A stretch of 64,000 bases of DNA from Gammaproteobacteria bacterium (GTDB lineage Bacteria; Pseudomonadota; Gammaproteobacteria; JABABF01): assembly GCA_965205525.1 (NCBI GenBank), contig OZ242171.1:1869098-1933097 (forward strand), read 5' to 3'. This document shows positions 54,327-57,091 of this stretch, piece after piece. The notes beneath the pieces were generated by a model. That model saw only the letters and a list, made by a program, of their open reading frames with translations. It was not told where the DNA came from and searched no databases. A program made the position numbers and the translations under genes. Every line of letters starts with the position of its first letter. Within the stretch, counting starts at the first letter, position 1.

Positions 54327-55190
54327 ATGGCCGCCGGCAAAGAGATCCGCACCAAGATCGCGAGCATTTCCAGCACGCAGAAAATTACCAGCGCGATGGA
54401 AATGGTCGCGGCGAGCAAAATGCGCCGTGCTCAGGAGCGCATGGCCCGGGGCAAGCCCTATTCCGGCCACATCCGCAGCGTTATCGGTCATATCGCCTGT
54501 GCAACACCGGAGCACCAGCATTTCTACATGGACGAGCGCGAGCCGAAGCGGGTGGGGCTTATCGTGGTCTCTACTGACAGGGGGCTGTGCGGCGGCTTGA
54601 ATATTTCCCTGTTCAAGGCAGTGGTCGGACACATGCGCCAGTGGAATGAGCAGGGCATTGAGGTGGAGCTGTGTCTCATCGGCGCTAAGGCTGGCGCCTT
54701 TTTCAAAAGTGTCGGCGGGAAAGCGGTCTCCCAGGTGCGCGGTCTTGGTGAGAAGCCGTCGGTGGAGGATCTGATAGGCACTGTGAAGATAATGCTGGAC
54801 GGCTTTGAAGAGCAGCGCTTAGATCGTCTGTTCCTGGCCGGCAATGATTTTGTCAATACCATGACCCAGAGCCCGCAGGTCAAGCAGTTGCTGCCGCTGC
54901 CGGCGGACGAGACAGCGGACTACCAGCACCACTGGGACTACATCTATGAGCCGGACGAAGCGGGACCGCTGCTCTCCGGCCTCCTGGCACGCTACATAGA
55001 GGCCTTGGTGTACCAGGCGGTGGTGGAAAACGGCGCCTGCGAGCAGGCGGCGCGGATGGTGGCAATGAAAAGCGCTACGGAGAATGCGGGCGAGCTGATA
55101 GATGAGCTGCAGCTGGCCTACAACAAGAGTCGCCAGGCTGCCATCACGCAGGAGCTGTCAGAAATTGTCAGCGGTGCGGCGGCGGTATAG
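54327..55190 (+). CDS. atpG: F0F1 ATP synthase subunit gamma
   Basis: [36 protein letters not shown]. Confidence 0.9.
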
Positions 55191-55204
55191 ACTGGAGCGG
55201 TGCC

Positions 55205-55675
55205 ATGCGGAATTTGTTCAGCACCGGGCCATGCCGAGTCAGCAGAACTCCCCGCAACTTGGATTTCCAAATGATGCATGTTCAGAAAACCGGGCGGGAA
55301 GATGGCTTTCCCAAGCTGCTGGATGAATACCTGCCCCCGCCATCGCCAGATGCCGAGCCCCCGGTCCGCGAAGTCTTGGATCTTCACGGCTTTTATCTGG
55401 AGGAGGCCCTGGAGAAAGTGCGCAGCCATGTCATCGCGGCGGCCAGAAGCGGCATGGAGCAGGTGCGCATTGTCTATGGTCGGGGGCGGCACTCCCCGGA
55501 CGGCCAGCCAGTGCTTCGGGAAGAGGTGCAGAAGCTCCTGCAAAAGGAGCTGCGACCCTATGTACAGAGATTTAAATCTGCGCCGCGCAAACAGGGCGGA
55601 GAAGGCGTGGCCATCGTCTATCTCTCCCTCGGTGACAGTCGCCAGCGGCTGGCGGCACAGCGGCATGAATCATGA
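55205..55675 (+). CDS. Smr (small MutS-related) domain protein inserted between atpG and atpD
   Basis: LDLHGFYLEEALEKV...VRIVYGRGRHSPDGQPVLREEVQKLLQ...GGEGVAIVYL is an Smr domain. Translation may begin at an internal Met (MMHVQ...). Confidence 0.7.
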   Translation: MRNLFSTGPCRVSRTPRNLDFQMMHVQKTGREDGFPKLLDEYLPPPSPDAEPPVREVLDLHGFYLEEALEKVRSHVIAAARSGMEQVRIVYGRGRHSPDGQPVLREEVQKLLQKELRPYVQRFKSAPRKQGGEGVAIVYLSLGDSRQRLAAQRHES

Positions 55676-55711
55676 AACAGACTTCGGCAATTATGCGAGG
55701 CAACTAGACAG

Positions 55712-57091
55712 ATGAGCAGCGGACAAATCGTACAGGTTATCGGGGCAGTTATTGACGCGGAATTTCCCCGCGATGCGGTGCCCTCAATTTATGATGCCAT
55801 CAAGGTGGATGATCGGGACCTGACCCTGGAGGTGCAGCAGCAGCTGGGAGACGGCGTCGTCCGCACCATTGCGCTGGGCTCTTCCGAAGGCGTGCAGCGC
55901 GGGCTGCCGGTCACCAATACCGGCGAGCCCGTCCAGGTGCCGGTGGGCACTGCCACCTTGGGACGCATCATGGATGTGCTGGGGCGACCCATTGATGAAG
56001 CAGGGCCGGTAGAGGCTGAGCAGCACCTGCCGATTCACCGCAAGGCGCCGCTTTACGAAGACCAGTCGCCCACCGTGGATGTGCTGGAGACCGGCATCAA
56101 GGTCATTGATCTCATCATGCCGATTGCCAAGGGCGGCAAGGTGGGGCTGTTCGGCGGTGCCGGGGTGGGCAAGACGGTCACCCTGATGGAGCTGATCCGC
56201 AACATTGCCATTGAGCACTCCGGCTATTCTGTTTTTGCCGGTGTCGGCGAGCGCACCCGAGAGGGCAACGATTTCTACCACGAGATGAAGGAGTCCCAGG
56301 TGCTGGACAAGGTGGCGCTGGTGTACGGCCAGATGAATGAGCCGCCGGGCAATCGCCTCCGAGTAGCCCTGACCGGTCTTACCATGGCAGAGCACTTTCG
56401 CGATGAAGGGCGGGATGTGCTGATGTTTATTGACAACATTTATCGCTATACGCTGGCGGGCACCGAGGTTTCGGCCCTGCTCGGGCGCATGCCCTCGGCG
56501 GTGGGCTACCAGCCTACCCTGGCGGAGGAGATGGGGGTGCTGCAGGAGCGCATCACCTCCACCCGCGCCGGTTCCATCACCTCTTTCCAGGCGGTGTATG
56601 TTCCGGCGGATGACCTCACCGACCCGTCACCGGCCACCACTTTCGCACACTTGGATGCGACCCTGGTGCTGTCTCGGCAGATTGCGGAACTGGGCATCTA
56701 CCCGGCGGTGGACCCGCTGGGCTCCACCTCTCGCCTGCTGGATCCCCTGGTTATCGGCCAGGAGCATTACGAGGTGGCCCGGGGCGTACAGTCCGTATTG
56801 CAGCGCTACAAAGAGCTGCGAGATATCATCGCCATTCTCGGCATGGATGAGCTCTCCGAGGAAGACAGGCTGACAGTGGCCCGGGCGCGCAAGATCCAGC
56901 GCTTCTTGTCCCAGCCCTTCTTCGTGGCGGAGGTGTTTACCGGCAGTGCGGGCAAATATGTCCCCCTGCGCGAGAGCATCGCTGGCTTTAAAGGCATACT
57001 GGAAGGGGAGTACGACCACCTGCCAGAGCAGGCGTTCTACATGGTGGGCGGCATAGAAGAGGCGGCGGAGAAGGGCGGCAGTGTGCAGTAG
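55712..57091 (+). CDS. atpD: F0F1 ATP synthase subunit beta
   Basis: GGAGVGKTV Walker A and DELSEED-like motif; 459 aa. Confidence 0.95.

Follow-up and report, generated by a model that had tools for sequence, protein, structure and literature searches.

A gene for a small Smr-domain protein (smr) lies within the ATP synthase (atp) operon of a gammaproteobacterium, between the genes encoding the gamma (atpG) and beta (atpD) subunits. The DNA analysed is a stretch of 64,000 nucleotides (nt) from contig OZ242171.1, called the window below, and coordinates refer to it unless another contig is named. atpG occupies positions 54327-55190 on the plus strand (PF00231, E = 1e-97) and atpD occupies positions 55712-57091 on the same strand (PF00006, E = 5e-73, together with PF02874 and PF22919). 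The interval between them is 521 bp long (55191-55711) and contains an open reading frame (ORF) on the plus strand, annotated at 55205-55675, that encodes 156 amino acids (aa) and matches the Pfam family Smr (PF01713, E = 3e-20); the shorter form of the protein described below gives the same match. The first-pass annotation of this DNA had described a 521-bp insert with a co-oriented 156-aa ORF and a composition like that of its neighbours, and both statements hold, as the coordinates agree and the insert, with a guanine plus cytosine (GC) content of 0.59-0.60, is close to the flanking atp genes (0.58-0.65). This conserved placement of smr inside the atp operon is undescribed so far, full-text literature searches having turned up no mention of bacterial atp operons that contain an Smr gene. 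We give about an even chance to the interpretation that the gene encodes a stand-alone Smr endonuclease of a rare, lineage-restricted subfamily that acts on RNA at ribosomes and is a passenger of this housekeeping operon.

The match to PF01713 scores 72.5 bits (cut-off 25.7), covers residues 58-140 of the protein (55376-55624, plus strand) and positions 1-76 of the 77 in the profile, and is the sole Pfam match in the insert protein. An AlphaFold2 (AF2) model has a mean predicted local distance difference test score of 79, with block means of 88-96 across most of the Smr domain and of ~71 at residues 91-100. It has the alpha/beta sandwich of the Smr fold, in the form of a beta-alpha-beta-alpha-beta-beta domain at residues 56-140 that is preceded by a helix (residues 32-42) and a proline-rich linker. 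The top Foldseek matches of the model in the PDB are all Smr domains: those of MutS2 (4och and 2zqe) have template modelling scores of 0.88-0.91 (target-normalised) and root-mean-square deviations of 1.7-2.2 A, and further Smr matches are Bacillus subtilis MutS2 on collided disomes, Escherichia coli YdaL, human N4BP2, and SmrB on the E. coli disome. The clear Smr domain that had been proposed for the ORF is supported both by its sequence and by the predicted fold. DxH and GxG are motifs defined in a study of SmrB, in which mutation of DxH abolished function (bioRxiv 10.1101/2021.08.16.456513). In the insert protein DxH is D59-L60-H61 (55379-55387, plus strand) and GxG is G92-R93-G94 (55478-55486, plus strand) with Y91 before it, as determined by alignment, and the residues D59, L60, H61, G92, and G94 do not vary when the protein is aligned with 65 relatives. 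The residues that the first-pass annotation had singled out for checking, D.H and HGxG, were found in part, as DxH is present and GxG is invariant but the "HGxG" reads YGRG here; across 68 aligned Smr proteins the position before GxG is occupied by T in 35, by H in 22, and by Y in 7. The loop that follows GxG, R-H-S-P-D-G-Q-P-V-L-R, is longer than that of SmrB or MutS2. The predicted N-terminal helix, EDGFPKLLDEY (55298-55330, plus strand; residues 32-42, from the AF2 secondary structure, a motif scan, and the alignment), is short and amphipathic in the model and leads into LPP and the proline-rich linker; the motif F-x-x-L-L-x-x-Y-L-P-P is common to two more distant groups of relatives, groups B and C below. 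We infer from the sequence and the model that the insert protein is a stand-alone Smr endonuclease, its nuclease activity and substrate being putative.

The annotated N-terminus of smr is probably too long. The first 22 codons of the annotated ORF are not conserved among relatives, and the start that is conserved is a pair of ATG codons at 55271/55274, which gives a protein of 133-134 aa. The start is placed there because the phase of the smr frame relative to atpG in the relative L001 differs from that in the window and because in L002 the conserved ATG-ATG is only 16 nt past the atpG stop codon, the 80-nt stretch that separates the two in the window (55191-55270, plus strand) being absent. 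In L001, positions 3526-3597 (corresponding to window 55205-55273) contain a 23-codon upstream ORF that has a GGAG Shine-Dalgarno sequence and ends in a TGA overlapping the smr ATG (TGATG), an arrangement that suggests termination-reinitiation coupling. In the window, the ATG at 55205 is in frame with smr and has GGAG 7 nt upstream (55194-55197), which is a better Shine-Dalgarno sequence than the weak one at the conserved start, and the 156-aa form may also be made from it. The idea that the 80-nt stretch is a degenerate tandem copy of the 5' end of smr was dropped, as the local alignment score was equalled by 47 of 1000 shuffles for the window and by 532 of 1000 for L001.

The gene and its placement are conserved in sister lineages. 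When 1.84 billion cluster representatives were scanned exhaustively with HMMER, a single cluster, that of the query itself, was hit at E < 1e-30, and the remaining hits were at E ~1e-13 or weaker. Looking up the window's Smr protein by exact identity matched no recorded contig. Word-indexed searches yielded a group of three 90%-identity clusters, referred to as group A, which are the window's own cluster, P0002 (six members), and P0003. The sister-lineage Smr proteins (two lineages, independent assemblies) are 64-76% identical to that of the window. The order atpG-smr-atpD-atpC is found in L001, L002, L092, and L093, and contigs with P0002, P0157, and P0003 from other samples and assemblies carry atpG-smr-atpD-atpC-DUF898-M48. 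The genomes with the insert are small, being single contigs of 2.0, 2.1, and 1.7 Mb. The Smr genes that a scan of JGI metagenomes with the Smr alignment recovered were all distant (33-37% identity) and had no atp genes close by. In a codon-level comparison, the ratio of nonsynonymous to synonymous substitution rates (dN/dS) of the smr core was 0.19-0.35 at a dS of 0.7-1.1, compared with 0.03-0.26 for the atp genes and 0.23-0.29 for the DUF898 and M48 genes; smr is under purifying selection that is relaxed relative to that on the ATP synthase subunits. It is hardly credible that the ORF is spurious, a pseudogene, or an assembly artefact in a long spacer. The weak Shine-Dalgarno sequence at the conserved start is all that speaks for this explanation, which is refuted by the Pfam match, by the purifying selection, and by the recurrence of the junction in six or more independent assemblies. 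An artefact at the junction, which the first-pass annotation had named as a possible refutation, is ruled out because independent assemblies from other samples have the same junction.

The remainder of the operon is canonical in its atp genes. All nine are present in the order and orientation of the canonical gammaproteobacterial operon, atpIBEFHAGDC, and their Pfam matches are all far above the cut-offs. On the plus strand, atpG is preceded by atpI, the first gene of the operon (50088-50483; PF03899, E = 5e-8), atpB (50501-51364; PF00119), atpE (51425-51658; PF00137), atpF (51692-52162; PF00430), atpH (52168-52704; PF00213), and atpA (52732-54276; PF00006 with PF00306), and atpD is followed by atpC, which encodes the epsilon subunit (57122-57550; PF02823 and PF00401). 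Relative to the canonical operon there is one extra gene between atpG and atpD and there are two extra genes coupled to atpC, while the sister clade carries three additional genes at the atpG-atpD junction. The two genes coupled to atpC were assigned by Pfam and encode a DUF898 membrane protein (57547-58590, plus strand) and a DUF7092/M48 metallopeptidase (58587-59675, plus strand). The atpC-DUF898 and DUF898-M48 pairs are joined by 4-nt start/stop overlaps, and the operon is in this way lengthened at its 3' end by a second addition particular to this lineage; L001, L002, and L092 share the DUF898-M48 order, which occurs in group A only. To place the insert among other gammaproteobacteria, GTDB species representatives were scanned with AtpG and the best 80 loci were listed, which are 66-73% identical and belong to Halieaceae, Spongiibacteraceae, Cellvibrionaceae, Porticoccaceae, and others. 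In 80 of these best 80 loci, atpG and atpD are separated by 20-323 nt with no gene inside, and no Smr, DUF898, or M48 match is nearby. The largest gaps among them (323 nt in L029, 208 nt in L015 and L065, and 174 nt in L044) contain no plausible ORF. The near-universal adjacency of atpG and atpD asserted in the first-pass annotation is therefore seen throughout the best 80 loci, and the comparison of related operons that it had proposed locates the insert in the sister lineages and in a second clade and finds it absent from these gammaproteobacterial loci.

The second clade, group B, was found by profile search and consists of four clusters (P0008, P0159, P0160, and P0161) that are 51-66% identical to one another and ~36% identical to group A. 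All four smr genes are directly upstream of atpD-atpC. In L094, L097, and L098 the order is gidB-parAB-atpIBEFHAG-X-Y-smr-atpD-atpC-...-glmU-glmS, with genes that overlap or are at most 30 nt apart, and the 3-kb contig L091 carries Y-smr-atpD-atpC. X and Y are ORFs between atpG and smr (L094 7148-7971; L097 7178-8004; L098 7154-8004; L091 3-395) that encode lipoprotein-like proteins of 146 aa (X) and 128-137 aa (Y). These proteins have a (F/W)-R-S-G-x-x-Q-C motif in common, have no match in Pfam, NCBIfam, or PADLOC, and may be paralogues of each other. In L098, a contig of 2x coverage, the atpC call (9892-10313) is split into ORFs of 77 and 63 aa, which reflects a frameshift or an assembly error. 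The upstream neighbour of smr thus varies, being atpG in one clade and the lipoprotein-like Y in the other, and the gene that directly follows smr, after a gap of 10-66 nt, is atpD in every one of the seven clusters (90% identity) that make up groups A and B. A third group (group C; P0018 and P0158) has the N-terminal motif common to groups A and B but adjoins an ATP-grasp gene, not atp genes. In L095 (8001-9670) and L096 (1597-3016) the group C smr is followed by the ATP-grasp gene and preceded by a gene for a basic repeat-rich protein, and the three may constitute another conserved neighbourhood. Among ~15 billion proteins, the subfamily is small and comprises only those seven clusters plus this sister group beside the ATP-grasp gene.

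The most parsimonious history is one ancestral insertion upstream of atpD, with X-Y either lost or gained. The ATP synthase proteins of group B are nearest to those of group A (AtpD is 85-86% identical, and AtpA, AtpG, and AtpD together are 78% identical), and the two groups are mutual nearest neighbours in these proteins. The next nearest ATP synthase is that of L072, an uncultured gammaproteobacterium with a plain atpG-atpD gap of 99 nt. Groups A and B also both have the N-terminal motif F-x-x-L-L-x-x-Y/H-L-P. It is improbable that the two groups took different Smr genes to the same gamma/beta junction in separate captures. Such captures would agree with the mean Smr identity, which is 0.36 between A and B and thus barely over the 0.32 between A and other, unrelated Smr proteins, and with a neighbour-joining tree of Smr domains in which each group has 100% bootstrap support and A and B are monophyletic in just 21% of the replicates. 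However, an identity of ~36% is expected from the dN/dS of smr at the observed divergence of AtpD, and a single insertion is more parsimonious than two captures. If there were two captures, an Smr gene ahead of atpD would have to be strongly favoured by selection.

Judged by its sequence, the insert protein is no equivalog of SmrB, SmrA, or MutS2, and it represents a rare, previously unnamed Smr subfamily with its own N-terminal helix motif. The NCBIfam models rank in the order mutS2 > SmrA > SmrB, and all scores are well under the cut-offs (for MutS2, TIGR01069, 48.4 bits against 400, with only model positions 710-790 matched; for SmrA, NF033154, 39.1 bits against 180). The protein does not belong to the PPR-SMR proteins of the ATP4/SVR7 type, as Smr is its only Pfam match, and it has no match in Pfam or NCBIfam to an ATP synthase subunit or accessory family (AtpI and similar). 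PADLOC anti-phage models gave no family for the Smr, DUF898, and M48 proteins. Like E. coli SmrB (YfcN), a ribosome-collision mRNA endonuclease, the insert protein is small and stand-alone, has DxH and GxG, and is composed of a predicted N-terminal helix, a linker, and an Smr domain at the C-terminus. Its AF2 model can be superposed on the SmrB of disome structure 7qgr. It differs from SmrB in sequence (22% identity), in the length of the linker (~13 residues against ~70), in the loop after GxG (6-7 residues longer here), and in the position before GxG (Y here, H in SmrB), and E. coli smrB adjoins prmB whereas smr here is within the atp operon. The helices, E-D-Q-A-L-F-R-Q-L-M in SmrB and E-D-G-F-P-K-L-L-D-E-Y-L-P-P here, have a loose resemblance. 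In the "--xxxa" motif by which SmrB hooks uS2, three residues separate the acidic pair from the aromatic residue, while in E32-D33-G34-F35 one residue does, and group B has no acidic pair. SmrB-like recruitment through the N-terminal helix is considered only a possibility because of this difference in spacing, the missing acidic pair in group B, and the short linker.

Other Smr proteins resemble the insert protein in part. E. coli SmrA (YdaL) and the C-terminal Smr domain of MutS2 have the same fold (Foldseek E = 1e-4 to 8e-7), and the post-GxG loop of SmrA is similar in length. However, SmrA reads N-L-L where the insert protein reads D-L-H, and MutS2, at ~790 aa, includes ATPase and clamp domains that the insert protein of 156 aa does not have. 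N4BP2, Cue2, and NONU-1 have DxH in common with it, and the sequence T-G-R-G-N-H-S-Q-G-G of N4BP2 aligns with the G-R-G-x-H-S-x-x-G loop; unlike these eukaryotic Smr nucleases, the insert protein is bacterial and single-domain and lacks their CUE, ubiquitin-binding, and DUF1771 modules. The plant PPR-SMR proteins ATP4 and SVR7 are Smr proteins with a functional tie to the expression of atpB/E (beta/epsilon), while here the tie is the adjacency of the gene to atpD-atpC. ATP4 and SVR7 are also nuclear-encoded, act in trans, and have PPR repeats, whereas the insert protein has no PPR repeats.

smr appears to be co-transcribed with the atp genes, because adjacent genes overlap or have short gaps between them, the GC content matches, the insert has no terminator-like site, and stable hairpins are absent. 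The spacer between smr and atpD is 36 nt long (55676-55711, plus strand) and contains a conserved GAGG at 55697-55700, 11 nt before the atpD ATG. In a consensus scan, promoter-like and terminator-like sites in the operon were not above those of shuffled sequence, no terminator-like site was found within the insert, and there was a single weak promoter-like match (9 of 12) at 55165-55193. No stable or significant RNA structure was found in either spacer (z of -0.28, for the 80-nt upstream stretch, to +1.08 against shuffled sequence), and at the gathering threshold no Rfam family was found anywhere in the window. An antisense ORF over the smr DNA (55118-55666, 182 aa) has no family match.

The interpretation of smr as an operon passenger encoding a ribosome-associated RNA endonuclease would involve the following steps. 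The gene would have become fixed directly upstream of atpD in an ancestor of these uncultured small-genome gammaproteobacteria and would be transcribed within the atp operon. By analogy with SmrB, Cue2, and NONU-1, its product would cleave RNA on or near ribosomes in translation quality control, and its location would be a passenger arrangement that gives constitutive, growth-coupled expression. An RNA or ribosome substrate is suggested because it follows the current understanding of SmrB, Cue2/NONU-1, and MutS2, the last of which, like SmrB and Cue2, has been reassigned to ribosome rescue in recent work. The passenger status of the gene is likewise putative. It is favoured by the addition of other, unrelated genes to the atp operon in the same lineage, namely DUF898-M48 in group A and X-Y in group B. 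Several findings weigh against this interpretation: the NCBIfam SmrB model (NF003432) gives 23.9 bits against a cut-off of 128 and is slightly outscored by the model of SmrA, a DNA endonuclease; the N-terminal helix is not an exact fit to the uS2-binding motif of SmrB; and smr has stayed directly 5' of atpD in two clades despite its changing upstream neighbour, a degree of order beyond what a neutral passenger would strictly need. The model ranking also bears on whether the protein is instead a DNA-nicking enzyme like the Smr domain of MutS2 or E. coli SmrA, with a role in recombination control or repair and an incidental position in the operon, which we regard as unlikely. Among solved structures, the sequence is matched best by the Smr domains of MutS2 (2zqe, E = 9e-5; 4och), the R-H-S-P-D-G-Q loop after GxG has the length of that in SmrA and N4BP2, unlike the short loop of SmrB, and some sources name relatives "DNA-nicking Smr family endonuclease". 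However, the family scores are all far below the cut-offs, there is no MutS ATPase or clamp domain, the database names are untested transfers, and MutS2 itself is among the proteins that have been moved to ribosome rescue.

The invariable position of smr directly 5' of atpD in the seven clusters of groups A and B, with differing upstream neighbours, would also be expected if the protein were an RNA factor specific to its own operon. It would then act on its own polycistronic mRNA, for example cleaving or binding it near the smr-atpD junction, and would make atpDC independent of atpIBEFHAG in stability or translation, helping to set the 3:1 ratio of beta to gamma. The gamma/beta junction is the same point at which the atp operon is split in chloroplasts and cyanobacteria, which is in keeping with such a role. 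A precedent linking Smr proteins to atpB/E translation is provided by the PPR-SMR proteins ATP4 and SVR7, which bind atpB/E mRNA and promote its translation in chloroplasts (PMC3858433). We nevertheless judge this role rather unlikely, as Pfam detects only Smr and no RNA-recognition module such as PPR repeats, neither spacer has a conserved or stable RNA structure or an Rfam match, adjacency to atpD is also explained by one inherited ancestral insertion, and the plant parallel may be coincidence. By analogy with those plant proteins, the Smr protein could further be a dedicated, cis-encoded post-transcriptional regulator that allows atpD-atpC to be expressed independently of the upstream cistrons, a proposal that we consider quite doubtful. 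Such a regulator might cleave or remodel the polycistronic mRNA or act on ribosomes at the gamma/beta junction, and this, too, we hold with little confidence. If it were true, the protein would be a free-living bacterial analogue of chloroplast ATP4/SVR7, and the retention of smr 5' of atpD in two divergent clades would be explained.

Several features of the DNA around the operon were also recorded. Directly after the extended atp operon is a low-GC island of two ORFs (59845-60675 and 60884-61648), with 36-45% GC against ~60% elsewhere. The first encodes a protein matching the PADLOC model UzuA (a Uzume candidate defence gene, E = 5e-45) with weak GIY-YIG-type similarity, and the second encodes an N6/N4 DNA methylase domain (E = 1e-15); the island is probably a horizontally acquired defence islet. 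Beside it, at 61720-62832 on the minus strand, is a gene for a DUF6765 family protein (E = 6e-88). At 42903-49091 is a giant ORF of 2062 aa with N-terminal lactonase/WD40-type beta-propeller repeats, located just upstream of an SGL-family (SMP-30/gluconolactonase-like) gene and atpI, and L092 has a homologous giant gene in the corresponding position.

The atp operon is among the most conserved bacterial gene arrays, and here a putative nuclease gene is kept inside it under purifying selection. This would represent either a clear case of an operon accreting genes in streamlined genomes, where a factor for translation quality control is carried along on a housekeeping transcript, or an initial indication that Smr nucleases may be wired to the expression of one operon, as the PPR-SMR proteins are for chloroplast atpB/E. 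The distinct N-terminal motif of this Smr subfamily can be tested for ribosome binding.

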